Shown here: positions 1-13,998 of the stretch, in pieces
How positions within the stretch are numbered: the stretch's first letter is position 1
Layout: every line of letters begins with the position of its first letter
DNA from: a virus
Lineage: Duplodnaviria; Heunggongvirae; Uroviricota; Caudoviricetes
IMG/VR virus record: IMGVR_UViG_2740892233_000016
Span: 1-13,998 of that record
Reading direction: 5' to 3' (one strand)
Length of the DNA stretch: 13,998 nt
Program-made: the position numbers and the translations under genes
The notes under the pieces: model-generated
The model's database searches: none
Told to the model about the DNA's origin: nothing
What the model saw: the letters and a program-made list of their open reading frames with translations, nothing else

Positions 1-1242
1 ATGGCGAGAAAAACACACCCATTAACCACAGTGCAGATCAAAGCAGCCAGACCAGCGCAAAAGGAGTACACCCTGCAGGACGGCGGAGGGCTTTTTCTCC
101 TGGTCAAACCGTCTGGATCAAAACTCTGGAGATTTTCCTACTACCGACCATCGGACAAAAAAAGAATATTGCTGAGTTTTGGATCGCTTGAAGATGTTTC
201 CCTGGCTGATGCCAGAAAACGCCGTAGCGAGTACAGGACGTTAATCAGTGCCGGAACTGACCCGCAGGACCACGAGAGGCAAAAAAGAGAGACAGAGGCC
301 CGAAGACAAGGGAACACGTTCGAAAATGTGGCGGCGGCATGGTACCAGGTGAAAATCAGCCAGAATCTGGCCCCCAACACGATTAAAGACATCTGGCGTT
401 CGCTGGATAAATATGTATTCCCGTTCATCGGCAACACGCCAATAGATACCCTCACCGCCCGAAGGTTCGTTGAAGTGCTTACCCCCATCAAGGAGCGCGG
501 CAACCTGGAAACACTCAAGCGGGTTTTACAGCGCGTTAATGAGGTAATGGATTACGCCGCCAACAGTGGGCTGATTGATGCCAATCCGGCTATGAATGTG
601 CGTAAGGCGTTTCCCTCACCTGTAAAAAAACATATGCCAACAATCCGCCCCGAACAGCTGCCCGAGCTTATGCAGGCTTTATCAGTATCGGCAACAGAAC
701 GGCAGACCAGATTACTGATTGAATGGCAGTTACTGACCGTAACCCGTCCCGCCGAAGCGTCATCAACGCGGTGGGATGAAATCAACCTGGACGCGAAGCA
801 ATGGACGATACCTGCCGGACGCATGAAGATGCGCAGGGATCACGTTATCCCGCTTTCCGGTCAGGCTATGGCGGTGCTGGAGGCCATGAAACCAATCAGC
901 CACCACCGCAATTACGTTTTCCCAAGTCTGAAAGACCCACAGCAGCCGATGAACAGCCAGACAGCTAACGCAGCATTGCGGCGTATGGGATTCGCTGGCG
1001 TGCTGGTGTCTCATGGATTACGCGCCATATTCAGCACAGCAGCGAACGAGGAAGGATTCGAGCCGGACGTAATAGAGGCGGCACTTGCCCACGTCGACAC
1101 CAACGAAGTTAGACGGGCATACAACCGGAGCAACTACATAGAAAAACGCATCGTGCTGATGCGCTGGTGGGGCGAATTTGTCGAGGCTGCGGCGACGGGC
1201 GTAACCCTCGCCAGTGGTAAAAGGGGTATCCGAGCCGTGTAG
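1..1242 (+). CDS. int: Tyrosine integrase, P4-like family
   Basis: 413 aa; N-terminus ...LQDGGGLFLLVKPSGSKLWRFSYY... typical of P4-type integrase arm-binding domain; C-terminal catalytic region with ...HGLRAIFSTAA... and ...AHVDTNEVRRAYNRSNY... (catalytic Tyr region). Stop TAG at 1240..1242. Confidence 0.93.
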   Translation: MARKTHPLTTVQIKAARPAQKEYTLQDGGGLFLLVKPSGSKLWRFSYYRPSDKKRILLSFGSLEDVSLADARKRRSEYRTLISAGTDPQDHERQKRETEARRQGNTFENVAAAWYQVKISQNLAPNTIKDIWRSLDKYVFPFIGNTPIDTLTARRFVEVLTPIKERGNLETLKRVLQRVNEVMDYAANSGLIDANPAMNVRKAFPSPVKKHMPTIRPEQLPELMQALSVSATERQTRLLIEWQLLTVTRPAEASSTRWDEINLDAKQWTIPAGRMKMRRDHVIPLSGQAMAVLEAMKPISHHRNYVFPSLKDPQQPMNSQTANAALRRMGFAGVLVSHGLRAIFSTAANEEGFEPDVIEAALAHVDTNEVRRAYNRSNYIEKRIVLMRWWGEFVEAAATGVTLASGKRGIRAV

Positions 1243-1319
1243 CTGTACAGAAAACCAGTAAAAACTACGAAAACCATGTAAAACCGTCGTATAATTGCAT
1301 CAAATTTAACGACAAGGCC

Positions 1320-1571
1320 GTGAAACATGAAACCGTTAAGATGCAAAAAAATATCAGATGCAATTGCGACGGGCTGCAACTGGCCCTGATGGTTCAGCAT
1401 GAATTTTGGTCAACCTACGATCCGGAGGACAGAACGACGGCCCCATCAAAAAAACAGGTAGTAGATTTTCTGGTATCCCGTGGCGCTTCCAGAAATCTGG
1501 CGGTAAGTATTGATAAGGTCGTACGTCCGGCATCTATGAAGATCGGAGGCAGGCCCAAAAAATGGCGGTAA
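1320..1571 (+). CDS. Hypothetical protein (83 aa)
   Basis: ORF between int and alpA, immediately followed by a clean intrinsic terminator; no recognisable family; weak RBS (AAGG). Confidence 0.35.
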   Translation: MKHETVKMQKNIRCNCDGLQLALMVQHEFWSTYDPEDRTTAPSKKQVVDFLVSRGASRNLAVSIDKVVRPASMKIGGRPKKWR

Positions 1572-1582
1572 CAATCCTGGAA

Positions 1583-1605
1583 GCGGCAGAAATGCCGCTT
1601 TTTTT
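1583..1605 (+). terminator. Rho-independent terminator
   Basis: GCGGCA-GAAA-TGCCGC hairpin followed by T7 run. Confidence 0.6.
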
Positions 1606-1634
1606 ATAATTCCATTTCAAATCATCAATATAAA

Positions 1635-1672
1635 AAACGGTGTATACCGTTTAAAAACGGTGGGAACTGTTT
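1635..1672. promoter_or_regulatory. Cluster of AAACGGT/ACCGTTT half-site repeats upstream of alpA (putative operator)
   Basis: AAACGGT(1635..1641), ACCGTTT(1646..1652), AAACGGT(1655..1661), ACTGTTT(1666..1672) forming overlapping inverted repeats about 70-100 bp upstream of the alpA start. Confidence 0.3.
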
Positions 1673-1738
1673 TTACCCATATCCGATGATTTACCGTATT
1701 TGTCACCGGAATACACCGGATTCACAAGGTAAATCACG

Positions 1739-1945
1739 ATGGAAGCAATCAGAAAAATTATCTTTCGCCAGGAAGTAAAAAAAATTATCCACATCAAGGC
1801 AGACAGCACGCTGCAAAGCATGATCAACGCCGGAGAATTTCCGCAGGGTTTTCGCGTTGGTTTACGCCGTCGCGGATGGTATGAGGATGATGTGTTGTCC
1901 TGGCAGAAAGAACGCGAAGAGGAAGCACGCGGAACGGCTGCTTAA
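1739..1945 (+). CDS. alpA: AlpA-family (prophage CP4-57-type) transcriptional regulator
   Basis: 68 aa; ...STLQSMINAGEFPQGFRVGLRRRGWYEDDVLSWQ... matches the AlpA helix-turn-helix signature (..AGEFP.P.K.G.R...W...V..W). Confidence 0.85.
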   Translation: MEAIRKIIFRQEVKKIIHIKADSTLQSMINAGEFPQGFRVGLRRRGWYEDDVLSWQKEREEEARGTAA

Positions 1946-2093
1946 CGGGTATCACAGATATGACAAACACGAAAAAAGCGGCCCCGATATGGAGCCGCCT
2001 TTCTGAACAATTAACCCGCTGCGCCTTATGTGTATGTGATCCCAAACATAAGCACGGGGATGATAGCCGCTATCAGGCTGGTGGGCAATGCAA

Positions 2094-2282
2094 TCAGTCT
2101 GGTTCAGTTCGTTGCCATACCTGCAATGAGCGCTTTTCCCTGTACTCTTTAAGGAATTGCTCAAGGGCAAAAGCACATGGCGCGAATCTTTCTGATTCAT
2201 GCTCTATCTTTCTGCGCCGTCTTTTCCGTGCCGGTGATAATGTTTTGGTCAATTCTTTATCGGTCATTGTGTTGTCCTGCAT
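2094..2282 (-). CDS. Hypothetical small basic protein (62 aa; alternative start at 2267 gives 57 aa with AGGA RBS)
   Basis: Minus-strand ORF downstream of Arc-like gene 1; contains RKRRRRK basic stretch; antisense frame on + strand is open (typical of real coding DNA). Confidence 0.4.
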   Translation of the reverse strand: MQDNTMTDKELTKTLSPARKRRRRKIEHESERFAPCAFALEQFLKEYREKRSLQVWQRTEPD

Positions 2283-2324
2283 AGCAATGCGCCGTAATAC
2301 CTCACACCACGGCGCTGATAGTTT

Positions 2325-2498
2325 TTATCCTTTGGGTTCTATGCCGCGTTGCTGTAATTCTTTGCGGAGAACGCGTTTAATCCAAGTGGCTAAAGATGTG
2401 TCGCCATCGGCCTTAGCTGCTTCTTCTAGCTGCGCTCTGAAGTCTTCCGGTAATCGCATTTGGTATGGAGGCGAACGTTTTTCTAATGGTGTTGACAT
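2325..2498 (-). CDS. Arc-like ribbon-helix-helix repressor (57 aa), module 1
   Basis: Not in the ORF track (<60 aa). Translation MSTPLEKRSPPYQMRLPEDFRAQLEEAAKADGDTSLATWIKRVLRKELQQRGIEPKG has the RHH pattern (beta strand ..MRLPEDF.. then two helices). RBS GAAGGG 8 nt upstream; start codon overlaps the divergent promoter/operator. Confidence 0.7.
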   Translation of the reverse strand: MSTPLEKRSPPYQMRLPEDFRAQLEEAAKADGDTSLATWIKRVLRKELQQRGIEPKG

Positions 2499-2538
2499 GG
2501 TAATTACCCTTCATTACTATACCTACATGGTAATTACC
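2492..2538 (+). promoter_or_regulatory. Rightward sigma70-like promoter (TTGACA-N17-TACTAT) with two copies of palindromic operator GGTAATTACC
   Basis: TTGACA 2492..2497, TACTAT 2515..2520; 14-mer ACATGGTAATTACC at 2495..2508 and 2525..2538 (palindrome cores 2499..2508 and 2529..2538, exactly 30 bp apart), overlapping spacer and +1. Confidence 0.55.
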
Positions 2539-2628
2539 ATTGTACTTGCCATTACACAAAAATCAACGCCCCGCAGTGCTGGGAACACATACGGGGCGTC
2601 TAACCAACAACGTAAACTAGGAGCCGTT

Positions 2629-3189
2629 ATGGTTGCCGTAAATCATATACCACACCTTGTACACACACAAACGGCCTTTGTGTGGCGTTTTCTGGCCCTG
2701 AATATCGGAGAAAAAAACCAGTTGATCGCCAGTGTCGAAAATAGCTATGATTCCCGCGCACCTCATAAAACGGGTGCCGGGATTGGCGTCCTGGGCAAAA
2801 CTGAAGCGCATAACACGCGCCCCGCGTGTTTTTTTGTGCCGCATAGTCACACCTTATCAATGGTGGGCTGTACGGGGGCGGAGCAATCCGCGCCGGTTTC
2901 TTCAGTGTCCGGTTACGCCAACCCTGTACAGTCCGCCACCAGCGAAATTGGCGTTTCCGGTGGCGGTTATCTTAACCACACTGAGGAGGCTGCCAACATG
3001 GCTACTATCCCTACCCTTGTACATTCTCAAACCGCCTTTCTCTGGCGCTTTATCATCTTTGGCGCGTCAGAACATCAAATCATCCACGTAACCGCCTGGA
3101 CGGAACGCGAAGCGCGTAGCCGTTGCCCGTCCGGTTGTGTTGCTGTATTCGCCGCCCGTATTCGTCAGGAGGTGTGCCATGTGCAATAA
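2629..3189 (+). CDS. Early-operon protein with internal tandem repeat of a small domain ending ...FAARIRQEVCHVQ (possibly Icd-like family; unverified)
   Basis: 186 aa from ATG 2629 with strong RBS AGGAG (2619..2623); two internal copies of motif ...LVH(T/S)QTAF(V/L)WRF(L/I)... ; the ORF-track 409-aa ORF is an upstream run-through of this frame. Confidence 0.6.
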   Translation: MVAVNHIPHLVHTQTAFVWRFLALNIGEKNQLIASVENSYDSRAPHKTGAGIGVLGKTEAHNTRPACFFVPHSHTLSMVGCTGAEQSAPVSSVSGYANPVQSATSEIGVSGGGYLNHTEEAANMATIPTLVHSQTAFLWRFIIFGASEHQIIHVTAWTEREARSRCPSGCVAVFAARIRQEVCHVQ

Positions 3190-3400
3190 AACCACACCGG
3201 ACGCAGCAGCCGCCGCGCTCACTACGCTGATGCACGCGCTTATCGATATTGAATGCACTGCAGAGCTTGCGCAGGGAGAAGAACAGAAAGACCGGACACA
3301 GTTCGCCCTGGAATGTATCCGATACATCGCAACGCGGTCGCTGAATGACGCTAAAAATATTCTTGTTGCTGATTGTGAAAATGGGGGGGGTTATGCGTGA
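3179..3400 (+). CDS. Hypothetical protein, N-terminal half of module-1 gene 2 (split relative to module-2 homolog)
   Basis: ATG 3179 overlaps stop of upstream gene (ATGTGCAATAA), RBS AGGAGG; homolog of N-terminal half of 4481..4945; terminated just after a G8 tract (3383..3390). Confidence 0.5.
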   Translation: MCNKTTPDAAAAALTTLMHALIDIECTAELAQGEEQKDRTQFALECIRYIATRSLNDAKNILVADCENGGGYA

Positions 3401-3614
3401 TGATCGTTTTAATTCCCTGAAACAAGAATTTTCCGGCGTTCCTGATGATGCGGCTGATGCGCTTTCGTCAATATCTGAAATTATGCGGGTGGCTTTTTTC
3501 TTTCTTTGCACTGATGAGCACAGAGATACAGGGCTAAATATTCTTGATATTGCCGCTAACTATGCTGATTTCGTGACAGAAGCTGTTTTAAGAAAAACAA
3601 CGGACGGGGATTAA
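3393..3614 (+). CDS. Hypothetical protein, C-terminal half of module-1 gene 2 (MRDDRFNSLKQEFSGVPDD...)
   Basis: Starts at ATG 3393 with the G8 tract acting as Shine-Dalgarno; near-identical at nucleotide level to 4713..4800 of the module-2 fused gene. Confidence 0.5.
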   Translation: MRDDRFNSLKQEFSGVPDDAADALSSISEIMRVAFFFLCTDEHRDTGLNILDIAANYADFVTEAVLRKTTDGD

Positions 3615-3615
3615 T

Positions 3616-3849
3616 ATGCGTGATATTTACCACGAAACAATAGACCGCGCATTTAGTGCCCTTGCTTACGCTGAAGGTATGTACGAAATATTGCGCATAT
3701 GGCTTGAAACACTTGGCGACAATGAACGCGACAAACAAAAATCAAGAATTGCCACGGCATTAATAACGCTTCTTGATCCTGTAATAATGGAACTGCAAGA
3801 AATAGATCTATTGCACGACAGATATAACGAACAGCACACCGGAGAATAA
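3616..3849 (+). CDS. Hypothetical protein (77 aa), module 1
   Basis: MRDIYHETIDRAF...; paralog of 4938..5171 (about 85 percent aa identity); start overlaps the preceding stop (TAATATG). Confidence 0.6.
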   Translation: MRDIYHETIDRAFSALAYAEGMYEILRIWLETLGDNERDKQKSRIATALITLLDPVIMELQEIDLLHDRYNEQHTGE

Positions 3850-3873
3850 AAATAATGAAACTTAAATATTCTG

Positions 3874-3883
3874 NNNNNNNNNN
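3874..3883. other. Run of 10 N (gap or masked bases) at junction between module 1 and module 2
   Basis: Directly seen; truncates a gene start MKLKYS... (ATG 3855) that is the paralog of 5177..5476. Confidence 0.9.
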
Positions 3884-3905
3884 TACACCACGGCGCTGAT
3901 GGTGA

Positions 3906-4085
3906 TTACTCTGGTTCTTTGGCCTTGCGCCGCTGGCGATATTCAACTTCTCGTTTTAATGCTGCAGTAACAAATTGCCCCGTACTTTCGCCAGGCATTT
4001 TTACCGCCTCAACATTGTTCATAACTTCATGCGGAACCCTTGCCGCAACGGTTTGTGATTTTGCGTTTACTGCTTTTGTCGCCAT
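3906..4085 (-). CDS. Arc-like ribbon-helix-helix repressor (59 aa), module 2
   Basis: Not in the ORF track (<60 aa). Translation MATKAVNAKSQTVAARVPHEVMNNVEAVKMPGESTGQFVTAALKREVEYRQRRKAKEPE; RBS GAGGGG 8 nt upstream; divergent from the module-2 promoter. Confidence 0.65.
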   Translation of the reverse strand: MATKAVNAKSQTVAARVPHEVMNNVEAVKMPGESTGQFVTAALKREVEYRQRRKAKEPE

Positions 4086-4135
4086 GTGGTGTACCCCTCA
4101 TAAAAAACAAATGCAGTATGCAGGAAAAAAAATAA

Positions 4136-4187
4136 GTGTTCAACACTTGACGTGTTTAACACCTGGGTTTAAATTGGTGTTCAACAC
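4136..4187 (+). promoter_or_regulatory. Rightward promoter (TTGACG-N17-TAAATT) with three copies of near-palindromic operator GTGTT(C/T)AACAC
   Basis: Sites at 4136..4146, 4152..4162, 4177..4187; -35 TTGACG 4147..4152, -10 TAAATT 4170..4175. Confidence 0.5.
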
Positions 4188-4284
4188 CTTGTTGGCGCAA
4201 GGTGCAGAAACGACGAAACCCGGCAGTGCGCTAACACTAACCGGGCTTCTAACCACCAACGATAGCGAAAGTATCGAGGTAGCT

Positions 4285-4491
4285 ATGAGAAATCATACCA
4301 CACACCCGCAAGGGCGGGACTCGCACAACCTGAATAAATACATCTGGCGTTTTATCGCCCTGAGCACGGCACAACCGCGCGTGATTACCATTGAGGCCAC
4401 CAGCGAACAGGAAGCACGCCAGCAATCTCCGGCTGGCTGCGTGATGGTATTCGCTGCCCGTATTCGTCAGGAGGTGTGCCATGTGCAATAA
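4285..4491 (+). CDS. Small protein ending ...FAARIRQEVCHVQ (single-domain paralog of 2629..3189; possibly Icd-like)
   Basis: 68 aa from ATG 4285 (RBS GAGG); C-terminal 25 aa nearly identical to C-terminus of 2629..3189; the ORF-track 190-aa ORF is an upstream run-through crossing the promoter. Confidence 0.55.
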   Translation: MRNHTTHPQGRDSHNLNKYIWRFIALSTAQPRVITIEATSEQEARQQSPAGCVMVFAARIRQEVCHVQ

Positions 4492-4945
4492 CATCCGTCC
4501 GGACGCAGCCGCCGAAGCCATCATAACGCTAATGCACGCGCTGATTGATATTTCTGTTATCGCAGACATGGCGCATAAGCACGCCACCAGTGAAACAGAA
4601 TATGCCGGGGCTTTCGTTCCTCATTCGCTGGCGGTTATGCAACTTAGTGCGGATATGGCGCTGAATGAGGCCAAAGCCATCCTGATTGCTGATTGTGAAA
4701 ATGGGGGGGTTATGCGTGATGATCGTTTTAATTCCCTGAAACAGGAATTTTCCGGCGTTCCTGATGATGCGGCTGATGCGCTTTCGTCAATGCCAGAACT
4801 TATTAGAGCGGCTTTTTTCTTACTTTCCACGAGAGAATATAAATCAACGGGGCTTGATGTACTGAATATCGCCGCCGATTATGCGGAATATGTGGCAGAG
4901 GCGCGTTATAGAAGAAAATTTCCTGAGGATGTAAGCCATGCGTGA
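4481..4945 (+). CDS. Hypothetical protein (154 aa), module-2 gene 2 (fused form)
   Basis: ATG overlapping upstream stop, RBS AGGAGG; reads through a G7 tract (4703..4709) where module 1 has G8. Confidence 0.6.
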   Translation: MCNNIRPDAAAEAIITLMHALIDISVIADMAHKHATSETEYAGAFVPHSLAVMQLSADMALNEAKAILIADCENGGVMRDDRFNSLKQEFSGVPDDAADALSSMPELIRAAFFLLSTREYKSTGLDVLNIAADYAEYVAEARYRRKFPEDVSHA

Positions 4946-5171
4946 TATTTACCACCAAACAATAGACCGCGCATTTCTTGCACTTTCTCACAGTGAAAAC
5001 ATGCTGGAAATATTGCGCATATGGCTTGAAACACTTGGCGACAATGAACGCGACAAACAAAAATCAAGAATTGTCACGGCATTAATAACGCTTCTTGAGC
5101 CTGTAATAAATGAGTTGCAGGAAATAGAGACATTGCACGACAGATATAACGAACAGCACACCGGAGAATAA
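4938..5171 (+). CDS. Hypothetical protein (77 aa), module 2
   Basis: MRDIYHQTIDRAF...; overlapping start/stop with the upstream gene. Confidence 0.6.
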   Translation: MRDIYHQTIDRAFLALSHSENMLEILRIWLETLGDNERDKQKSRIVTALITLLEPVINELQEIETLHDRYNEQHTGE

Positions 5172-5176
5172 AAATA

Positions 5177-5476
5177 ATGAAACTTAAATATTCTGGCTTA
5201 ACTGCCAGTGGCAACACTCACCCTAAATTTACGCGCGGTGATATTTACCGCGACCAGTACGGCGGCACGGTAATGATTAAGGGCGTGGCGGGACGGTGCG
5301 TAACTTACCGCCGTGAAGGTTACGAATATGATTGCGTGATGCCTGTTTATCAGTTCCGGCGTGATTTTTCTCTGGTACAGACCGCGCCGCATAACGTGCC
5401 CACCAGCAACGCCAGGGCACGGGCAAACATCCAGAAGCTGAAAACCATGATTAACGGATTCAGGGGCAAGAAATGA
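5177..5476 (+). CDS. Hypothetical protein (99 aa), translationally coupled to the rep-like gene
   Basis: Stop overlaps the rep start (ATGA at 5473..5476); the first 6 codons are duplicated at 3855..3873. Confidence 0.55.
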   Translation: MKLKYSGLTASGNTHPKFTRGDIYRDQYGGTVMIKGVAGRCVTYRREGYEYDCVMPVYQFRRDFSLVQTAPHNVPTSNARARANIQKLKTMINGFRGKK

Positions 5477-6873
5477 AAAGCGCACCGAACTTAAAAAAAC
5501 AGCCTTACGACAAGATGACCGAAGTCATTATTTTTGCGGGTAGTGATGCCTGGGCACATGCGAAACAGTGGCAGGAACAGGACGGGCGACTGGCTGGCGA
5601 TAATGTGCCTCCCGTTGTGCTGGCTGATGATCAACTGGATGAACTGGCAGACCTGAGAATCATCGACGAGGGGCGCTATTGTGTCCGGCTGTACAAGGCA
5701 GGCCACATCAGGCCATCAAATATTAATGCCATTGCGCACAAGCTGGCGGCGGCGGGTGTAACTGATGCGAATTATTACCCCGAAGGGATGCACAGCCATA
5801 TGCGGGAGAACTGGCGCGAATACCTGGAACGGGTGCGCGGGAAAGAGCCGGCGGAAGAAAAAAACCACCAGCGAAAAACCACGCTACCGATGAGCGTTGG
5901 ATCTACCGGATACGACACGCAACTGGATTACGTGGTTAAGGGGATTATTCCGGCGGTATCGCTATGCAGCATATACGGGGCTAGCGGGTCCTATAAATCA
6001 TTCCTTGCCGGATCGTGGGCGTGCCATGTTGCCACTGGTCGCCAGTGGGGAGGCCGCAGGGTTGCACATGGTGCGGTTCTCTATGTGGTTGGTGAAGGCG
6101 GTATAGGTGTTCCGCGTCGTGTAAAAGCCTGGGAGGTTGTGCACGATGAGCAGGTGAAAAATCTGTATCTGGTAAACCGCCCCATCTTTCCGGCTGCCCC
6201 GCTTGATGTTGATGAAATGGTTATCGCTGCCCGTCAGGTGGAGCGGGAAACGGGTAAACCTGTACGCATGATTATTCTGGATACGCTGGCGCGTTGCTTT
6301 GGTGGGAATGATGAAAATGATTCCCGTGATATGGGGGCGTTTATCCGTGGTTGTGACGAACTGAAACGACGCACAGGGGCCACGGTGCTGGTGGTTCACC
6401 ATTCCGGCAAGGATGAGACGAAAGGCGCGCGCGGTTCCAGTGCATTTCGTGCTTCGCTGGATGCTGAATACCGGATACGCAGGGAGGACGCAGGAAGCGA
6501 AGCGCTGGTTATCTCATGCACCAAAATGAAGGACGCGGAGGAACTCAAAGAAGCCGCATATGACTTACGCGTGGTGGAGCTTTTTACCGACGCTGACGGT
6601 GAATTAATCACGTCGCTGGTGGTGGTGGATGATCCGCGCCCTCCTGTTGAACTGGAGCGCATCGAGGAGGCAGGGAACAAGACGGAAAACCATACCGCGC
6701 TATGGGGGTGCATCCGTTCACGCACACAGAACGGCGACAAGTGCACGATCCCGCTGTTACGTGATGACATGAAAAAGCTGGGGTATGAAATGAAAAACTT
6801 CCGGCGCTGGCTGTACAAGCTGGAAAAAGATGGGGTTATTCGTATCGATGGGGATGATGTAGCGCCGCTATAA
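5473..6873 (+). CDS. RepA-like AAA ATPase / replicative helicase of the satellite (AAA_25-type)
   Basis: 466 aa; Walker A-like GASGSYKS, Walker B-like ...RMIILDTLARCF..., ...VLVVHHSGKD... motif typical of RepA/DnaB-like RecA-fold helicases; iterons begin at its stop codon. Confidence 0.8.
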   Translation: MKSAPNLKKQPYDKMTEVIIFAGSDAWAHAKQWQEQDGRLAGDNVPPVVLADDQLDELADLRIIDEGRYCVRLYKAGHIRPSNINAIAHKLAAAGVTDANYYPEGMHSHMRENWREYLERVRGKEPAEEKNHQRKTTLPMSVGSTGYDTQLDYVVKGIIPAVSLCSIYGASGSYKSFLAGSWACHVATGRQWGGRRVAHGAVLYVVGEGGIGVPRRVKAWEVVHDEQVKNLYLVNRPIFPAAPLDVDEMVIAARQVERETGKPVRMIILDTLARCFGGNDENDSRDMGAFIRGCDELKRRTGATVLVVHHSGKDETKGARGSSAFRASLDAEYRIRREDAGSEALVISCTKMKDAEELKEAAYDLRVVELFTDADGELITSLVVVDDPRPPVELERIEEAGNKTENHTALWGCIRSRTQNGDKCTIPLLRDDMKKLGYEMKNFRRWLYKLEKDGVIRIDGDDVAPL

Positions 6874-7063
6874 AAGTGAGGAGCAAAAGCGAGGGGGATA
6901 GAAAGAGGGCCAAAATTAGCCCGCTCTCCCTCACTTTTCGACCTGTATACATCCTCAAAAGTGAGGGGTAAAAAAATACTTATGAAACACACACATAGAA
7001 AAACCGAAAATCCCAACTGCGACGAAGTGAGACGCTTGAAAAAGTGAGGCGAAAAAGTGAGAG
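6873..7063. repeat. Iteron array AAAGTGAG(G/A) (putative replication origin)
   Basis: Direct copies at 6873, 6958, 7042, 7055 (plus GAAGTGAGA 7024 and degenerate AAAGCGAGG 6885, AAAGAGGG 6902) and one inverted copy CCTCACTTT 6929..6937; AT-rich stretch 6968..7010 between them. Confidence 0.6.
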
Positions 7064-7073
7064 GTTGCGAGAA

Positions 7074-7293
7074 ATGACCCAAAAACGCAGAGACAGAACA
7101 GAGCCAAAATATAAAGCGTTAGACATGACTGAGCACACCTTAAAGGTGGCAATCAGAACGATAGACCGCCACACGCGGGAAGGATACGCGAAGGAACATC
7201 CCGACCTGATAAGCGCATTCATGACCACGGCGGCGGCAAACTTTGCCACGCTGACAGAACGGGAGATTGCCGAAGCGGAACAGGTAACAACCA
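7074..7293 (+). CDS. Hypothetical protein, 3' end obscured by N run
   Basis: ORF from ATG 7074 (MTQKRRDRTEPKYKALDMTEHTLK...) running into the N run at 7294..7303; true stop unknown. Confidence 0.35.
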
Positions 7294-7303
7294 NNNNNNN
7301 NNN
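7294..7303. other. Run of 10 N (gap or masked bases)
   Basis: Directly seen. Confidence 0.9.
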
Positions 7304-7319
7304 CCGGAGAGGTGGAATT

Positions 7320-7730
7320 ATGACGGCACAGATAGCCGCTTACGGGCGGCTGGTGGACGACCCGCAGGTAAAACAGACCAGCAAGGGCACACCGATGACG
7401 CTGGCGCGTATGGCGGTATCTTTGCCATGCAGCCAGGCACAGGACGGACAGGCGACGTTATGGTTATCGGTCATCGCATTTGGCAAACAGGCCGACTTCC
7501 TGGCTAAACATCAAAAAGGCGATGTTGCCAGCGTATCCGGCACGATGCAGGTAAGCCAGTGGACCGGACAGAACGGAGAAACGCGGCAGGGCTGGCAGGT
7601 TATCGCAGACAGCGTAATCAGTGCCCGCGCGGCACGTCCAGGCGGGAACAGACGCAAAACCACAGGCACACAGGGTAATCAGCCACCAGCGGGAGGCGAT
7701 GACCCTTACGGTGATGATATTTCGTTCTGA
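7320..7730 (+). CDS. ssb: Single-stranded DNA-binding protein
   Basis: 136 aa from ATG 7320 (RBS GGAGAGGTGG); OB-fold pattern aligns with E. coli SSB (..GRLVDDPQVK.. / ..WLSVIAFGKQADFLAKHQKGDVASVSG..QVSQWTGQNGETRQ..), acidic C-terminal tail ...DDPYGDDISF. Confidence 0.85.
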   Translation: MTAQIAAYGRLVDDPQVKQTSKGTPMTLARMAVSLPCSQAQDGQATLWLSVIAFGKQADFLAKHQKGDVASVSGTMQVSQWTGQNGETRQGWQVIADSVISARAARPGGNRRKTTGTQGNQPPAGGDDPYGDDISF

Positions 7731-7740
7731 GGGGGTGACG

Positions 7741-8013
7741 ATGGTACATGACCGCATAGCGGAGGAACTGGAGGCGAAAGGCTTTTACCGGAGGGCGGCG
7801 GCGCGATGGGGTGAAGTCATGCAGCTGGTGGAGACAGACAAGGAACGGCATCACATCACGATGCGACGGCTGGAATGTTCAAGGAAGGCACAGAGGGCAC
7901 CGGAGCCGCCGGATAATTTCGGAGACCTGAAAAAGGCAGTCGATCGCACTTATGCCGAAATGGGTATAGATGGTGCTGGTGATGAAATATGGCGCAATTA
8001 CCAGGACAGCTAA
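7741..8013 (+). CDS. PerC-like transcriptional regulator
   Basis: 90 aa; N-terminus MVHDRIAEELEAKGFYRRAAARW... resembles the PerC-family N-terminal signature (recalled from memory; needs HMM confirmation). Confidence 0.55.
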   Translation: MVHDRIAEELEAKGFYRRAAARWGEVMQLVETDKERHHITMRRLECSRKAQRAPEPPDNFGDLKKAVDRTYAEMGIDGAGDEIWRNYQDS

Positions 8014-8019
8014 TCAAAC

Positions 8020-8043
8020 AGCCGGAGAAATCCGGCTTTTTTT
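8020..8043 (+). terminator. Rho-independent terminator (AGCCGGA-GAAA-TCCGGCT + T7)
   Basis: Perfect 7-bp stem, GAAA loop, T-run. Confidence 0.65.
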
Positions 8044-8139
8044 GCACCAGTTGAAACGGTATGGCGCATTACCGGGTTTTCGTCACGGTCAGGCATAGTT
8101 ACTATCTGAAACAAACAGACACAACAGAGGAAAAAAACA

Positions 8140-8364
8140 ATGCCGATGAAATTTGATGAGATATTAAAACAGCGTGATAAATACCATGCTGACAACATGG
8201 AGACGATGAGCATCAATGATTACCGCGCATTCCTGGAGACGGGCGCACTGATTGAAAAGGATCAGCATGGTTTTGTGAGATGTGCTCTATCCGGTGAAAT
8301 GCTGGCGGTAAATCCTGAACAGATAGATGCATTGATAGAATTTCTGAAAGAGATCAGAGACTGA
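8140..8364 (+). CDS. Hypothetical protein (74 aa)
   Basis: RBS GAGG upstream of ATG; followed by two terminators. Confidence 0.5.
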   Translation: MPMKFDEILKQRDKYHADNMETMSINDYRAFLETGALIEKDQHGFVRCALSGEMLAVNPEQIDALIEFLKEIRD

Positions 8365-8383
8365 GCCAGCACACAGCACACAT

Positions 8384-8406
8384 AGCCGGAGCAATCCGGC
8401 TTTTTT
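8384..8406 (+). terminator. Rho-independent terminator (AGCCGGA-GCAA-TCCGGCT + T6)
   Basis: Near-identical to the hairpins at 8020 and 10658. Confidence 0.65.
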
Positions 8407-8412
8407 GCGCCC

Positions 8413-8454
8413 AAAAAAAGCCCGATAAGGTCAGAGGGTTCTTATCGGGCTTTT
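8413..8454. terminator. Bidirectional terminator-like hairpin (A7 - GCCCGATAAG...CTTATCGGGC - T4)
   Basis: 10-bp perfect stem with 11-nt loop, flanked by A-run and T-run. Confidence 0.5.
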
Positions 8455-8510
8455 GCATATGAGGTTTTTGGATGCACTGGCGTTCGTGATCGGGATAATC
8501 ATTTCATAAT

Positions 8511-8580
8511 TTGCAACATAACTCAATATCATTGCATAAAATGCAATTCTGATTATAATCAGGACTGGATGAACATCCAG
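8511..8580 (+). promoter_or_regulatory. Late (morphogenesis) promoter region: TTGCAT-N16-TATAAT embedded in three perfect palindromes
   Basis: ATTGCATAAAATGCAAT (8531..8547), CTGATTATAATCAG (8549..8562, contains TATAAT), CTGGATGAACATCCAG (8565..8580); the downstream operon starts at 8616. Confidence 0.5.
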
Positions 8581-8615
8581 TTATGATTTTTTAAGTCGAA
8601 GAGGAATTTCTTACT

Positions 8616-8822
8616 ATGGCTGAAGAGAAAAAAGGCGGTGTTTCGGTGTACATAAGCCCCGACATCGTGAAGGCGCTCAAGGAACGCCACCAGCAGAACG
8701 TAAAAGCAGGCATTGCGGCAGGACTTGATCCGCTGGCGATGGTTGAGCCGTCAACAGGCTGGCAGGTCCGCGCCTATTTACGCGCGGCGCTGGGCATGAA
8801 TCAGACGCATGGAGGTGAATAA
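8616..8822 (+). CDS. Hypothetical protein (68 aa), translationally coupled to the capsid gene
   Basis: Stop TAA overlaps capsid ATG (TAATGG); RBS GAGGAA upstream. Confidence 0.5.
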   Translation: MAEEKKGGVSVYISPDIVKALKERHQQNVKAGIAAGLDPLAMVEPSTGWQVRAYLRAALGMNQTHGGE

Positions 8823-9877
8823 TGGCAGGCAAAGCAACGGCACTTAACACTAACCAGCTTTTCGCGTACCTGAATCGCGGGGATATTGCAGAATTTAAAT
8901 TCAGTCCGCTGTTTACCACGCTGTTTTTCCCGAACGTGGCGACCTTCAACACCCAGAACATCATGCTGGACACCCTGGACATTGAAGAGGTTACGATGTC
9001 AGCGTTCTGTTCGCCTATGGTGGGTAGTCAGGTCCAGCGCGATAAAGGGTACGAAACCAGCACGATTAAACCAGGCTACATGAAACCCAAACACGAAATC
9101 GATCCAACAAAAACCATCATGCGCATGGCTGGAGAAGATCCGGCACAGCTTAACGATCCTACCTATCGCCGTATGCGCCTGATTACTGGCAACATGCGCC
9201 GCCAGATAAACGCCATTAAGGCACGCGTGGAATGGCTGGCGGTGAATGCGGTAACGACCGGAAAAAACCTCATTGAGGGCGAAGGCATAGAACGCTATGA
9301 AATCGACTGGAAGATCCCGGAAAGCAATATCATAGAACAGGCTGACGGTAAAAAATGGTCTGAGCTGGATAAAGAAACACACGATCCAATCTATGACATC
9401 GAGCTTTATGCTGATCAGGGCAATTGCCCCGCAAACGTCATGATTATGGGCGCTGAAGTATGGCGCACGTTACGCAGCTTTAAAAAATTCCGCGAACTGT
9501 ACGACCTTTCCCGTGGTTCAGAATCCGCCGCAGAACTGGCCTGTAAAAACCTGGGTGAAGTGGTGAGCTTTAAAGGCTATCTGGGCGATATTGCCCTTGT
9601 CGTCTATTCCGGCAAATACACTGACAGCGACTGCACCGAAAAATATTTCCTTGAGCCTGATTTGCTGGTCCTGGGTAACACCAACAATAAAGGGCTGGTG
9701 GCCTATGGTGCGATTATGGATCAGGAAGCGGTCAGAACGGGCGCAACGCAAAACATGTTTTACCCGAAAAACTGGATTGAGGACGGCGATCCGGCGATTG
9801 AGTACGTGCAGACGCACAGCGCACCGCAGCCGGTACCGGCAGATATTCGCAAATTTGTTACCGTCAAAATTGGTTAA
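8822..9877 (+). CDS. Major capsid protein, lambda gpE-like
   Basis: 351 aa; collinear similarity to lambda gpE: FKFSPLFTTLFF vs FKFDPLFLRLFF; KPGYMKPKHEIDP vs TPGYVKPKHEVNP; EDPAQLNDPTYRRMRLI vs EDPQNLADPAYRRRRII; SFKGYLGDIALVVYSGKY vs SYKGMYGDVAIVVYSGQY; FYPKNWIEDGDPAIEY..HSAP vs RYPKNWVTTGDPAREF..QSAP. Confidence 0.9.
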   Translation: MAGKATALNTNQLFAYLNRGDIAEFKFSPLFTTLFFPNVATFNTQNIMLDTLDIEEVTMSAFCSPMVGSQVQRDKGYETSTIKPGYMKPKHEIDPTKTIMRMAGEDPAQLNDPTYRRMRLITGNMRRQINAIKARVEWLAVNAVTTGKNLIEGEGIERYEIDWKIPESNIIEQADGKKWSELDKETHDPIYDIELYADQGNCPANVMIMGAEVWRTLRSFKKFRELYDLSRGSESAAELACKNLGEVVSFKGYLGDIALVVYSGKYTDSDCTEKYFLEPDLLVLGNTNNKGLVAYGAIMDQEAVRTGATQNMFYPKNWIEDGDPAIEYVQTHSAPQPVPADIRKFVTVKIG

Positions 9878-9889
9878 CGGGGGGATTCT

Positions 9890-10225
9890 ATGGACACTCC
9901 ATACATTGAGTTATTTGCAGGTAGTCAGCAGGTATCCACGACGCTGGTACATTTTGCTGCTGATGCTGGCGTTATTCAGGAATTTACCCCGCTGATGCTG
10001 GCGGAAAATGGCGAGTTTAAGCCGTGGGATGGTCAGGAATCTGGCAAGGCTGTTTATCTGACCTCGTACCCCGTGGACACGTCGACGCAGAAATCAGCAC
10101 AGTGCTACAAGACGGGGATATTCAATATTGCCGCCGTTAACTGGCCTGAGAGCGCCGACACCGACGCGAAAAAATGCGCCGCCTTTGCGGGTTCTGGCGT
10201 ATCCGTTCAGCCGCTGGCGCGATAA
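9890..10225 (+). CDS. Head decoration protein, lambda gpD-like
   Basis: 111 aa; TPLMLAENGEFKPWDG... and ...CYKTGIFNIAAVNWPESADTDAKKCAAFAGSGVSVQ parallel lambda gpD TPLMLDTSSRKLVAWDG... and ...[36 protein letters not shown]. Confidence 0.85.
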   Translation: MDTPYIELFAGSQQVSTTLVHFAADAGVIQEFTPLMLAENGEFKPWDGQESGKAVYLTSYPVDTSTQKSAQCYKTGIFNIAAVNWPESADTDAKKCAAFAGSGVSVQPLAR

Positions 10226-10237
10226 GCAGGGGGAACG

Positions 10238-10651
10238 ATGGCAACGAATGAAAGTATCATGACGCTACCGCTGGCGAGTAAATTTAAAGCCGAAGCGCGG
10301 GCAATGGCTGACAGAGGTTTATCAACCTACGAGGCCGTATATCAACTTAACAGCCTGGAAGAGAAGGACAAGCCGCGCGCTGATGCGATTATGGCGCTTC
10401 ATGAATCTGACGACTATCAGCCGCTGTTACGTGCAATGGCAAACGTGCCTTGTATTGATGTTGATACGGCTAAAAACATCCTGAACATGACCATAGAGCA
10501 GGAACGCCCGAAGGTTGCACCAGAGCTTACCGCAGCCTTTGAAAACTTTATGGACATGCACAGCCCACAAGCCGTATCAGCTGGCATGGCATACGATGGC
10601 AGAAACCCGGGCGATGACGGCGACATCGATCGCATACTGAAAACCATCTGA
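10238..10651 (+). CDS. Hypothetical protein (137 aa) in the capsid module
   Basis: RBS GGGGGAACG; follows gpD-like gene; ends at a terminator; no recognised family. Confidence 0.55.
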   Translation: MATNESIMTLPLASKFKAEARAMADRGLSTYEAVYQLNSLEEKDKPRADAIMALHESDDYQPLLRAMANVPCIDVDTAKNILNMTIEQERPKVAPELTAAFENFMDMHSPQAVSAGMAYDGRNPGDDGDIDRILKTI

Positions 10652-10657
10652 GACAAG

Positions 10658-10679
10658 GCCGGAGAAATCCGGCTTTTTT
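10658..10679 (+). terminator. Rho-independent terminator (GCCGGA-GAAA-TCCGGC + T6)
   Basis: Third copy of the same hairpin sequence. Confidence 0.65.
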
Positions 10680-10703
10680 GCGGGTCCTTTCCGGCATATG
10701 GAC

Positions 10704-10745
10704 CTGTTACGGGGCGGAGACCTCGCGGATTTTCGCTATTTATGA
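10704..10745 (+). other. cos site 1 (lambda-type cosN, variant cohesive-end sequence GGGCGGAGACCT at 10712..10723)
   Basis: CTGTTACG-GGGCGGAGACCT-CGCGGATTTTCGCTATTTATGA matches the lambda cos junction GTTACG-GGGCGGCGACCT-CGCGGGTTTTCGCTATTTATGA with 2 mismatches; lies about 145 bp upstream of the Nu1-like gene, as in lambda. Confidence 0.7.
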
Positions 10746-10818
10746 GCCTTTTCAGGGGGGTGGTGGTGGTTTTGTTGTTTGATCTATCTTTATGAATGAA
10801 AAGGGAAAGATGCAAGCA

Positions 10819-10854
10819 ATACACCAACCTGAAGCAGTAATTAAGTTGGTGTAT
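10819..10854. repeat. Perfect 10-bp inverted repeat ATACACCAAC-N16-GTTGGTGTAT abutting the Nu1-like start codon
   Basis: Directly seen; right arm ends 2 nt before the ATG at 10857. Confidence 0.6.
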
Positions 10855-10856
10855 TA

Positions 10857-11399
10857 ATGAAATCTCATCTGATGAACAAAAAAAACATGGCGAAAAGCTG
10901 CCGTGTAAGTGCGACAGCGTTCGACAAGTGGGGAGTAACTCCCGTTGAGCGTAAAGGCCGTGAGGCGTTTTATGATGTTGCCAGCGTGATAGAAAATAGG
11001 GTTAACAATGCAATTAGCCAGCTTATAAACGACAAAGGCGAGATTGACGATGATGAACTTTTACGAGTCAGGATCAGATTACTGACAGCACAGGCAGAGG
11101 CGCAGGAACTTAAAAACGATCGCGATCGCGGTGACGTGATTGATACTGAGTTTTGCCTGTACGCGCTTTCAAAGCTGGCGAGTCAGATTTCATCAATCAT
11201 GGACATCCTCCCGCTTACTATGCAAAGGAGCTTCCCACAGATTACCCCCGCCATGCTGGACAGGCTTAAAAGGGAAGTGGTTAAAGCCTGTAATGCCAGT
11301 GCCAGAGTTGCCGACAACCTCCCACAGATACTGGCTGATTACTTGAAAGAAACAACCGGAAACGTACCGGAAAAGTTGCTACAGAAGAAAGGCGAGTAA
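10857..11399 (+). CDS. Terminase small subunit homolog, lambda Nu1-like (possible packaging-redirection factor)
   Basis: 180 aa vs lambda Nu1 181 aa; LTAQAEAQELKNDRDRGDVIDTEFCLYALSKLASQISSIMDILPLTMQRSFPQ vs lambda LTRAQADAQELKNARDSAEVVETAFCTFVLSRIAGEIASILDGLPLSVQRRFPE; N-terminal DNA-binding region is similar but more diverged. True start may be the second ATG (10872). Confidence 0.85.
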   Translation: MKSHLMNKKNMAKSCRVSATAFDKWGVTPVERKGREAFYDVASVIENRVNNAISQLINDKGEIDDDELLRVRIRLLTAQAEAQELKNDRDRGDVIDTEFCLYALSKLASQISSIMDILPLTMQRSFPQITPAMLDRLKREVVKACNASARVADNLPQILADYLKETTGNVPEKLLQKKGE

Positions 11400-11427
11400 C
11401 AGACGCGCAATTATTGAACAAAAATGA

Positions 11428-11489
11428 GAAAGGATCTGATAATGGCATTTTCTGGCTAAAATGCCTCGTGTCAGATCCTTTCTTTTTTT
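11428..11489 (-). repeat. Nested inverted repeat GAAAGGATCTGA...TCAGATCCTTTC + T7 (cosB R-element-like for cos site 2; could also act as terminator for the Nu1-like gene)
   Basis: 12-bp perfect outer arms (11428..11439 / 11471..11482) with inner hairpin GGCATTTT-CTGGCT-AAAATGCC; same position and architecture as the lambda cosB repeat GAAAGGAAACGACAG...CTGTCGTTTCCTTTC relative to cosN. Confidence 0.55.
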
Positions 11490-11573
11490 AATATTTTCAT
11501 TGTTAAACAGTCTGTTACAGAGAAGAAGATCGGATCTGACTTTTGCCGGAAAATTCTCATAAACAGATAAAAA

Positions 11574-11596
11574 CCGCGAGGTCGCCGCCCCGTAAC
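11574..11596 (-). other. cos site 2 (exact lambda cosN including cohesive-end sequence GGGCGGCGACCT, minus orientation)
   Basis: + strand CCGCGAGGTCGCCGCCCCGTAAC is the exact reverse complement of lambda GTTACGGGGCGGCGACCTCGCGG; adjacent reverse-strand sequence TTTATGAGAATTTTCCGG matches lambda TTTATGAAAATTTTCCGG. Confidence 0.65.
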
Positions 11597-11654
11597 GGGC
11601 CATAATTCCAGGAAGGACCCGACGACACCAGACTATCAGAGCGATGGGGGCACA

Positions 11655-11936
11655 ATGACAGAAGCCGAACTACTGGGATTAATCCGCCGCGTCGCCGGAA
11701 TCAGCCAGCAGCATGACGAACAGGCCACACAGCCGGACAGCGTGACCGCTGAAAATTATGTGCGTGTTGTAGCGGAAGTGATGCGCCGTGATGGTATAGA
11801 ACTTAATGGCGTTGATATGCGCAACATACGGAACCGCGTTCTTGAAATGCTGGCCTACAATCGCCGCGTTGAACTGTATCGGGAGAAAGAAAAAATAACG
11901 TACCACTGGAAGAAGCCGGAACGGCTGCGGCGGTAA
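11655..11936 (+). CDS. Hypothetical protein (93 aa)
   Basis: ORF with RBS GGGGG; no recognised family. Confidence 0.45.
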   Translation: MTEAELLGLIRRVAGISQQHDEQATQPDSVTAENYVRVVAEVMRRDGIELNGVDMRNIRNRVLEMLAYNRRVELYREKEKITYHWKKPERLRR

Positions 11937-12024
11937 CTTGCTGATATTCCCGATAACGCAAAATTGCGCTGGCTACATCCCTCACATCTGAGGACTGTTA
12001 ACCAGAAGGCCGGAATATATTCAC

Positions 12025-12047
12025 AAACTACGAAATTTTCGTAGTTT
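12025..12047. repeat. Perfect 23-bp palindrome AAACTACGAAA-T-TTTCGTAGTTT near right junction
   Basis: Directly seen; 11-bp perfect arms. Confidence 0.6.
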
Positions 12048-12537
12048 AATTAATGGTCAGATTAATCGCTAACCCGCTGATATTTTCGGAAACCTCAATT
12101 TGAGGAAGTCGGAAGCGTCACCCTTCATATTCTGAATGGTCATAATGACCACGCAGACCATCAAGGCAACCACAACGAACATCGTTACGGTTGGAGCTTT
12201 TACCCCACTGGGGGAAAGGTATTACGATAATCATAACACCTACCGAACAGGTAAAACCCACCAGCCTGATTAACAGTTAACCGGAAAAAAAATCCGGTAG
12301 CCCCGTTATGGGGATCCCCATATCGACATTAACGCCCCTCATGAATTGGTGCGCTTCCCCCTGGAAAGATTACCCGCCTGTATATTTCTTGTGTCTATTT
12401 GTTCCACGTTGTTTCATACAGTGCACCGAACGGTGTAGTTAATGGTGTAGTCAATTTGCTGTTTTTAGCACTTTTTGCAGTGTGTGTTGTTTAATTAAAT
12501 CAATGGGTTGCCTTGCTGTGGTGATAAAAGGACATAT

Positions 12538-13998
12538 TTATTCATCTTTCGGCGCAGAATGCTGGCGACCAAAAATCACCTCCATCCGCGCACCGCCCAG
12601 CATGCTCTCTCCGGCGACGATTTTACCCTCATATTGCTCGGTGATTTCGCGGGCTACCGCCAGCCCTACACCTTGCCCAGGGCGTAAAGTATCAACCCGT
12701 TGACCACGGTCGAAAATGACCTCTCGCTTGCTTAATGGAATACCGGGGCCATCATCCTCGACCACAATATAGAGATGCTCGTCGGTTTGCCTTGCAGAAA
12801 TTTCGACAAACTCGAGGCAATATTTACAGGCATTATCCAGCACGTTGCCCATCACCTCGACAAAATCGTTCTGCTCACCGACAAAGCTGATCTCTGGCGA
12901 AATATCGAGAGAGATATTGACCCCTTTGCGTTGATACACTTTGTTCAGCGCTGAGGTGAGATTGTCCAGCAGTGGGGCGACCGGATGCAGCTCGCGGCTG
13001 AGCAATGTCCCGCCGCGCATACTGGCACGATGCAGGTAGTAGCCAATTTGCTGTGAAATGCGGCTGATTTGCTCCAGCATTACCGGCTCAGCATCACTGA
13101 CGCTCATCTTTTCACTACGCAGAGAACGCAGCGTACTTTGCAGCACCGCCAGTGGCGTTTTCAGACTATGGGTCAGGTCGGTGAGCGTCGTACGGTATTT
13201 GTCGTAACGTTCGCGTTCACTTTTTAACAATCGGTTCAGGTTTCGTACCAGACTGGTCAGTTCTCGCGTTGTGGCTGGATTGAGCAATTCGCGGTTATGT
13301 TCTTCCAGTTCGCGGACTTCTTTTGCCAGGGCTTCGATGGGGCGTAAACTCCACCAGGCGGCGACCCACAGCAGCGGGATCACTAACAGCAGATTGGCTG
13401 AGAGCACATAGATAAACCAGCTCCAGACCATATAGGAACTTTTTAGCTCCACCGGAATGGTATCCACCACCACAATGGTTAATTTTGGCATCCGCGATGT
13501 TGCCGGGTAGACGTTTACTGCCACCGAGTGGGTCATCTCCGCGTCGTCATCATCTTCCCGCACTTCCTGCAACTGTTGCTGTATCGAATGATCTCCACTC
13601 AGCAAGAGGCTGGTATCGTTAACATCCGCTTCAATTTCATGAAAACCATTCGATTTCAGCCAGTCAGGCTGGATCATCTTCATCAGCCAGGGCACGTCAC
13701 GTTGCGCCCATAAAAGCTGCCCGTTCTCATCATAAATTAGCGTCATGGTGGGGCTTTGCTTGTCGATATTTTCGGGTAACTCGACATGCAACTTATTGTT
13801 TTCCCACTTCGCAAGGGTATAGAACAGATTGCTCTCGCCACGTAACAGCCGAAACGTAGTTTTATCGAAACTGACGCTATAACCGATCAGCGCGACCATT
13901 CCGTAGGCAAGCGAAAGCACCAGTACTACCGCAGCCGTTGCCAACAGAAAACGTACCCGCAGTGAGAGCGGGAAAAAAAGACGCAGTAATTTTTTCAT
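12538..13998 (-). CDS. phoQ: Sensor histidine kinase PhoQ
   Basis: 486 aa; translation matches E. coli PhoQ along its length as recalled ([60 protein letters not shown]... , H-box ...[13 protein letters not shown]..., ATP-binding domain ...DDGPGIP...[12 protein letters not shown]...). Confidence 0.97.

Follow-up and report, generated by a model that had tools for sequence, protein, structure and literature searches.

Capsid, decoration and putative scaffold genes in the morphogenesis operon of a phage-inducible chromosomal island of the EcCICFT073 family

The virus sequence IMGVR_UViG_2740892233_000016 of IMG/VR (Caudoviricetes) was analysed over positions 1 to 13,998 (13,998 nucleotides, hereafter the window), and the region 8616–10651 represents, with near certainty, the morphogenesis operon of a Gram-negative phage-inducible chromosomal island (PICI) belonging to the classical Type A, or EcCICFT073 family. 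Its genes almost certainly encode, in this order, a 68 amino-acid (aa) protein, an E-type capsid protein, a D-type decoration protein and a shortened scaffold of the Nu3/gp6 type, and the operon is closed by the terminator at 10658. It is followed, with the same near certainty, by a packaging cassette made up of cos1, a Nu1-type gene for the small terminase subunit (TerS), cos2 and a gene for a 93-aa protein. The capsid and decoration gene module of the island is already known (2018); the additions made here to the literature are modest, i.e. the scaffold assignment, selection data, data on a satellite-specific lineage, and a caveat on the markers carried by the islands tested so far.

Capsid, decoration and scaffold genes of the operon

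The capsid protein (351 aa) was 43% identical to lambda E and 44% identical to gp7 of phage 21, and for the decoration protein (111 aa) the identities were 38% with lambda D and 45% with SHP of phage 21. Both had been named gpE-like and gpD-like in a first-pass annotation made from the sequence alone, which was borne out by Pfam and PHROG profile matches (Table 1); the four open reading frames (ORFs) that it placed in the operon were all confirmed to the exact position, and comparison with the lambda gene map (C/Nu3, D, E) agreed with its description of the order E then D as the reverse of that in lambda.

Among 50,697 phage records, the best-matching phage capsid protein reached 47% identity. 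The PICI capsid proteins shared 54–96% identity with one another and 42–47% with those of the lambda/phage 21 type, the phage proteins being 58–86% identical mutually, and the decoration proteins followed the same identity pattern, with the satellite group apart from the phages. Because the PICI proteins resemble one another far more than they resemble the phage ones, both genes are satellite-specific and have long been kept in satellites, and are not recent captures.

The 137-aa protein encoded downstream of the decoration gene is, on the evidence of five concordant sequence results, a shortened homolog of the phage 21 gp6 and lambda Nu3 scaffolds, and the first-pass statement that a Nu3-like scaffold was missing was wrong. 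The protein matched the C-terminal positions 494–567 of 583 in phrog_53 (E-value 6.7e-9), a head-maturation-protease family in which this C-terminal stretch is where the lambda Nu3 or phage 21 gp6 scaffold is read in frame within the protease gene. Residues 49–131 aligned by blastp, in a small search space, to residues 115–192 of phage 21 gp6 (36% identity, E-value 3.6e-9), and the alignment comprised a single gp6/Nu3 repeat (IMxLxE...P..V.TA+.IL) and a gp6-like tail (FExFM..HSP.AV...DGD.D). An exhaustive phmmer search over 1.84 billion proteins returned eight matches in total, with E-value 2.7e-6 for a three-repeat scaffold (P0041) encoded directly upstream of D and E homologs in the lambda order. 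Profile–profile comparison (hhalign) with the gp6/Nu3 scaffolds resulted in a probability of 95.8% and an E-value of 7.8e-9 over 97 columns.

This kinship was detectable only by small-space blastp, HMMER or profiles: at a threshold of 1e-3, none of the 50,697 phage records was matched by the 137-aa protein in tblastn, and local tblastn with phage 21 gp5 missed the gene. The NCBI family name of the protein, “phage head-tail connector protein”, resembles the label “head-tail preconnector” of gp5 and gp6 in the phage 21 record. The gene follows E and D instead of lying inside an S49 protease gene, no protease gene being found in the window. A literature search on PICIs and Nu3 or scaffold proteins returned no paper on these genes, and none naming the 137-aa gene a scaffold.

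The genes flanking the capsid and decoration genes had been described as being of no recognisable function, and their products as candidate scaffold or size factors. For the 137-aa protein the first description was replaced by the scaffold assignment, in favour of the second (hhalign, phmmer, blastp), while the 68-aa protein had no significant profile or fold match. The predicted translational coupling of the 68-aa gene to the capsid gene was found as a TAATG overlap of its stop codon with the capsid ATG. Pfam and NCBIfam searches returned nothing for the 68-, 137- and 93-aa proteins, lax thresholds included, and a profile of the 68-aa protein against PDB sequences gave nothing useful, as did a PDB sequence search with TerS. 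The AlphaFold2 (AF2) model of the 68-aa protein, which is of moderate confidence with a predicted local distance difference test score (pLDDT) of 75, consists of an N-terminal extended segment followed by two helices. It had no significant Foldseek match in the PDB, the Arc repressor appearing only at E-value 9.3, and a ribbon-helix-helix reading of this model is only a guess. Homologs of the 68-aa protein are known in Salmonella and Pluralibacter.

Table 1. Features of the island in the window, with strand and supporting evidence.
Feature	Position	Strand	Evidence
Tyrosine integrase, P4-type arm/central/catalytic domains, left island end	1..1242	+	Pfam Phage_integrase, Phage_int_M, Arm-DNA-bind_3
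AlpA-like regulator	1739..1945	+	Pfam Phage_AlpA, E-value 0.0028, 17.9 bits, under curated cut-off 21
RepA/AAA_25 replication helicase, pri-rep equivalent	5473..6873	+	Pfam AAA_25 2.4e-43; phrog_2850 full length
68-aa protein, coupled to capsid gene	8616..8822	+	phrog_3255
Lambda gpE-family major capsid protein, homolog of EcCICFT073 c1499	8822..9877	+	PF03864 Phage_cap_E 4.8e-49; phrog_29 3e-105
Lambda gpD / phage 21 SHP-family decoration protein, homolog of c1500	9890..10225	+	PF02924 HDPD 1e-17; phrog_49
137-aa shortened Nu3/gp6-type scaffold homolog, free-standing, one repeat unit and C-terminal tail	10238..10651	+	phrog_53, blastp, phmmer, hhalign
Intrinsic-terminator-like hairpin GCCGGAGAAATCCGGC then T6, closing the 68-E-D-scaffold operon	10658..10679	+	Sequence inspection
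cos1: lambda-like cosN with one change (GGGCGGAGACCT at 10712-10723) and conserved flanks, cosN-to-terS orientation	10700..10760	+	Aligned to the cos sites of lambda, phage 21 and CFT073
Full-length Nu1-type small terminase, in the RppA slot of EcCICFT073	10857..11399	+	PF07471 7.9e-23; phrog_57 2.4e-51
cos2: exact cosN 11579-11590 and three TCAGATCC boxes, lambda-like cosB layout, pointing to terS	11432..11600	-	Alignment
93-aa conserved protein, final island gene in every variant seen	11655..11936	+	phrog_1561
attR core, 21-bp direct repeat of sequence upstream of int	12431..12451	.	Repeat match to O26:H11

Seven copies of the module were compared: besides the one in the window, these were the copies of O26:H11 and CFT073 and those of four islands integrated at mdtJ, smrA and clpS, the diverged copies being drawn from E. 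coli genomes and individual contigs. No stop codons or frameshifts were found in the module genes of these seven copies. The ratio of non-synonymous to synonymous substitution rates (dN/dS) of the capsid gene was 0.06–0.14 within variant 1 and 0.01–0.05 within variant 2, followed by the decoration gene (0.08–0.18), terS (ca. 0.2), the scaffold homolog (0.21–0.26, and 0.55 in one low-divergence pair), the 93-aa gene (0.11–0.36) and the 68-aa gene (0.19–0.40). Judged by these ratios, the capsid, decoration and scaffold genes are under purifying selection, which is strong for the capsid gene, and so is the 93-aa gene.

Inheritance of the capsid gene was coupled to that of the decoration gene, the two forming a matched pair (ca. 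54% and ca. 52% identity between the two variants), and terS (83–85% identity) and the 93-aa gene were swapped between the two capsid lineages. The matched pair supports a working shell, because the satellite would have no need of a cognate cement protein unless its own capsid protein forms the lattice. The second capsid/decoration lineage (islands L005, L006 and L008, integrated in E. coli at smrA and clpS) has no 68-aa gene. The diverged island L010 keeps the order of 68-aa, capsid, decoration, 134-aa, Rpp-like and 94-aa genes, and in other islands built on this backbone, a ClpP-protease/capsid fusion or the full head module of capsid-forming PICIs (cf-PICIs) was found. A capsid-protein search of genome contigs gave no confirmed related locus.

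Each operon gene is preceded by a Shine-Dalgarno sequence, and 12 nt separate the capsid gene from the decoration gene and the latter from the 137-aa gene. Near-identical terminator-like hairpins (GCCGGAG[A/C]AATCCGGC and a T run) were observed at 8021–8043, 8385–8406 and 10658–10679 (+), that is, after the PerC, 74-aa and scaffold genes, respectively; late transcription may therefore need read-through or antitermination. The PerC-family transcriptional activator (7621–8013, +, Pfam 1.2e-42) is encoded just upstream of the morphogenesis operon and is a candidate regulator of this operon or of host virulence genes.

Island identity, packaging cassette and early region

The entire island is contained in the window, with int starting from base 1 and a length of ca. 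12.5 kb from int to attR. The attR core is a 21-bp attachment (att) direct repeat, CGGTGTAGTTAATGGTGTAGT, with its partner 47 bp upstream of int in the O26:H11 island, and the flanks of the island in the O26:H11 copy are roxA and phoQ. Between 8400 and 12100, nucleotide identity was 99.9–100% to islands of many Shiga toxin-producing E. coli genomes, including O26:H11 11368; of 5426 complete E. coli genomes, 1832 had matches to the segment, and in 493 of these at least 80% of it was covered.

PICI features found were an integrase with att repeats, an own replication helicase, a capsid gene, terS and cos, and a size within the range of 10–15 kb; genes for a single-stranded DNA-binding protein (SSB) and PerC were additionally identified in Pfam and PHROG scans. 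The Pfam match of the AlpA-like product is weak, its position and size fit AlpA, and the RefSeq label in the O26:H11 copy is a helix-turn-helix (HTH) regulator. No genes for portal, head-tail connector, large terminase subunit (TerL), tail or lysis proteins were found by tblastn of the window or in the RefSeq annotation of the near-identical island. When the lambda and phage 21 proteins were used as tblastn queries, TerL, portal, protease, W/gp3, FI and FII had no match in the window, and matches were obtained from Nu1, D and E only.

The view of the element as an integrative satellite with neither portal, protease nor TerL, expressed in the first-pass annotation, was upheld by the int gene, att repeats, replication gene and PICI gene set, as well as by these negative searches; as the complete element lies within the window, the absence of portal and TerL extends to the whole island. 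The element is assigned to the Type A PICIs because int, RepA, capsid and terS genes and a putative AlpA-like gene, matching the SatelliteFinder core set, are present without portal, TerL, tail or lysis genes. SatelliteFinder PICI core components include capsid and terS, and 97% of the Type A elements are from E. coli (PMC10085698). Three other classes were rejected: a defective prophage, the defining genes of which are absent; a cf-PICI, since portal, prohead protease, head-tail adaptor/connector and TerL had no homologs in the window; and a P4-like satellite, there being no Sid, Psu or Delta.

The packaging cassette is organised around a TerS of 180 aa, with 36% identity to lambda Nu1 over residues 6–166 and no detectable similarity to RppA (c1503, 144 aa). 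The sites cos1 and cos2 are convergent and flank terS; the single change in the cosN of cos1 is C-to-A, and the TCAGATCC boxes of cos2 are at 11532–11539, 11471–11478 and 11432–11439. Box sequence co-varies with TerS or RppA, because in RppA-type islands three CCGGACAT boxes replace the TCAGATCC boxes at their positions. In variant-2 islands, cos1 alone is intact. The 93-aa gene is always located just past cos2, whatever the capsid lineage or the TerS/Rpp gene, and is 72–91% identical across the variants.

The early region contains a tandem segmental duplication of ca. 1.3 kb (3103–3873 and 4405–5195, 76–91% identity), which is absent from the O26:H11 island and doubles an Icd-like gene and two small ORFs, including the 77-aa paralogs at 3616–3849 and 4938–5171. 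In Rfam, isrK (66 bits) and C4 antisense RNA (77.6 bits) were matched with scores exceeding the gathering threshold at 2758–2834 and 2856–2943 (+), upstream of the Icd-like genes, and this C4/Icd-like layout resembles the P1/P7 immI-type C4-icd arrangement, inside a satellite. Two runs of ten N (masked bases) are at 3874–3883 and 7294–7303, the second of which breaks the reading frame upstream of the SSB gene.

Possible roles of the capsid, decoration and scaffold proteins

In the account that is tentatively preferred, and to which we give slightly below an even chance, the capsid, decoration and scaffold proteins are working subunits that assemble on helper portal and protease and are redundant with a compatible helper E and D, while TerS and helper TerL package concatemers from the island cos. 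By analogy with EcCICFT073, a lambdoid helper of the phage 21/lambda type would induce the island, followed by excision and replication, and the island TerS would bind its own cosB boxes and recruit helper TerL. On the sequence evidence, the three proteins would serve as satellite-specific shell, cement and scaffold subunits, assembling on the helper portal with the helper protease, either alone or mixed with helper subunits, into full-size lambda-type heads, which would take up island concatemers and then helper tails. The island shell genes would be dispensable when the helper gives compatible E and D, and because of this dispensability their selective value would most likely be back-up, extra shell supply or a wider helper range, small capsids being less likely.

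The genes are taken as functional because they are intact in seven copies with low dN/dS, capsid and decoration form a matched pair, and the scaffold repeat and tail have been kept, and also because of the tight spacing, the Shine-Dalgarno sequence of each gene and the operon-closing terminator. Packaging by the island's own specificity is suggested by the full-length Nu1 homolog and the cosN with three boxes that co-vary with TerS/RppA. Full-size heads and dispensability are proposed because of the data on EcCICFT073, the induction, packaging and transfer of which depend on a helper phage. Its capsid (c1499) and decoration (c1500) genes were noted in 2018 (Fillol-Salom, PMC6092414), and with lambda as the helper of EcCICFT073, all packaged DNA was of phage size (PMC6092414); a 2019 review and the cf-PICI preprint describe that such PICIs travel in large capsids, as concatemers. 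The capsid-gene arrangement has been published as characteristic of Gram-negative PICIs of Type A (PMC6092414, PMC10111431, PMC10085698); of 29 reference Gram-negative PICIs, 21 have capsid genes, and these are not required for transfer (PMC10111431).

Several points weigh against functional shell subunits. Deletion of c1499 or c1500 left both lambda interference and transfer unchanged (PMC6092414), and when island genes were expressed singly under arabinose induction, only c1503 (rppA) inhibited lambda (Fillol-Salom 2019). Two TerS-type islands of the 2018 study had poor or no transfer, with no helper identified, and no published experiment placing island capsid, decoration or scaffold proteins in particles was found. 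In the second capsid lineage, a 127-aa AlpA-type HTH protein is encoded at the position of the scaffold gene, i.e. a private scaffold is not universal, and the AF2 single-sequence model of the 137-aa protein (pLDDT 42) was too poor for a fold search.

The published tests are to be read with a caveat on markers, as the tested EcCICFT073 derivatives all carried either tetA in c1501 or cat replacing c1499. Since the decoration gene is c1500 and rppA is c1503, c1501 is most likely the gene of the 137-aa scaffold homolog, and if so, the intact trio of capsid, decoration and scaffold genes may apparently never have been assayed. The scaffold gene, the purifying selection on a satellite-specific group, and the markers inside the operon argue that the genes work and were incompletely tested. 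The marker caveat also leaves room for a stronger version, rather unlikely in our estimate, in which the 68-aa, capsid, decoration and scaffold proteins are a self-sufficient shell kit building its own procapsid shell round the helper portal and protease. The null phenotype would then be an artefact of the c1501 and c1499 markers, and the one-repeat scaffold could set another head size with a natural phage 21-type helper. If true, the island would be a “semi-capsid-forming” PICI, between the classical PICIs and the cf-PICIs.

Redirection of head size in the manner of SaPIbov5 Ccm, by which the capsid protein and short scaffold would steer assembly to heads of triangulation number T<7 for one or two genomes of 11–12.5 kb, with the helper genome excluded, is considered unlikely. 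Satellite capsid homologs act so in SaPIbov5 and are suspected to do so for PmCI172, a scaffold cut to one repeat unit is a plausible size determinant, and the published negatives come from islands marked in c1501 or c1499. However, the first-pass idea of capsids sized for the satellite genome conflicts with EcCICFT073, the module of which is 94–97% identical: only phage-sized DNA was packaged with a lambda helper, the two deletions neither relieved interference nor altered transfer, and the concatemers of later papers are in large capsids, the marker caveat applying to this comparison as well. Islands of ca. 11–12.5 kb, moreover, fit a lambda-size head as multimers.

Interference is a commonly found effect of PICIs on their helpers, and it is conceivable, but distinctly improbable, that the role of the capsid and scaffold homologs is to disrupt the assembly of helper heads, or to serve as a decoy or shield against capsid-sensing host defences, and not to form useful particles. 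The C-terminal region of the lambda scaffold and protease is believed to direct both into the procapsid, and the scaffold homolog, which shares this region with helper scaffold and protease, could compete. Yet rppA was the sole lambda inhibitor under single-gene expression, lambda was still blocked by islands deleted for c1499 or c1500, and a conserved, matched decoration gene is hard to explain as a poison or decoy.

The module as a decaying remnant of captured helper late genes, or of a defective prophage, with no current function would agree with deletions that have no phenotype and with the known capture of late genes by PICIs. This reading is close to refuted by dN/dS far below 1 with every examined copy intact, the matches in 1832 of the 5426 genomes, a satellite-specific protein group, to which phage capsid proteins are at most 47% identical, the gene order kept in the diverged island L010, and the own att sites, int and replication gene with no other phage genes, and we regard it as very improbable.

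Capsid genes are among the commonest late genes of Gram-negative PICIs, yet no phenotype was assigned to them in the literature searched. If the module builds or supplements a shell, as in the preferred account, classical PICIs would be less helper-dependent than assumed, which would be relevant to helper range, to how cf-PICIs arose and to the engineering of PICIs as delivery vehicles.

Comparison with known systems

The island of E. coli O26:H11 11368 (NC_013361, 1619628–1629951) had 99.9% nucleotide identity over 8400–12100 and identical proteins save one capsid residue; it lacks the 1.3-kb duplication and is ca. 11 kb in size as opposed to 12.5 kb here. EcCICFT073, the model Gram-negative PICI, from E. 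coli CFT073, shares the roxA/phoQ site, the order of 68-aa, c1499, c1500, 137-aa and 93-aa genes (protein identities of 97%, 96%, 95.5%, 94% and 88% for 68-aa, capsid, decoration, 137-aa and 93-aa, respectively), and two convergent cosN sites around a packaging-specificity gene. It differs in this gene, a 144-aa RppA instead of the 180-aa Nu1-type TerS, and in the cos2 boxes (CCGGACAT there, TCAGATCC here), whereas the C-to-A change in the cosN of cos1 and the early-region tandem duplication of 1.3 kb are found here.

With lambda and phage 21 (C/Nu3-D-E and gp5/gp6-shp-gp7), the island has in common the capsid, decoration, scaffold and Nu1-type TerS homologs, the cosN sequence and the cosB layout. 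In contrast to these phages, the order is E-D-scaffold, the scaffold gene is free-standing, outside a protease gene, and has a single repeat unit where the phages have three, genes for TerL, portal, protease, W, FI, FII and tail are absent, and protein identity is only 34–47%. The cf-PICIs of the EcCIEDL933 type (Alqurainy 2023) have a similar int/alpA/rep backbone and likewise an own capsid gene and terS, but also have portal, protease, head-tail connectors, TerL, HNH and an HK97-type capsid, and these extra genes are absent here. Ccm of SaPIbov5 is likewise a satellite-encoded homolog of the helper major capsid protein; it is, however, a lone and highly divergent gene, the product of which is 23% identical to the helper capsid protein, needs that protein, and makes small capsids, whereas the near-identical module of EcCICFT073 gave no small capsids and a full set of shell, cement and scaffold genes is encoded here.

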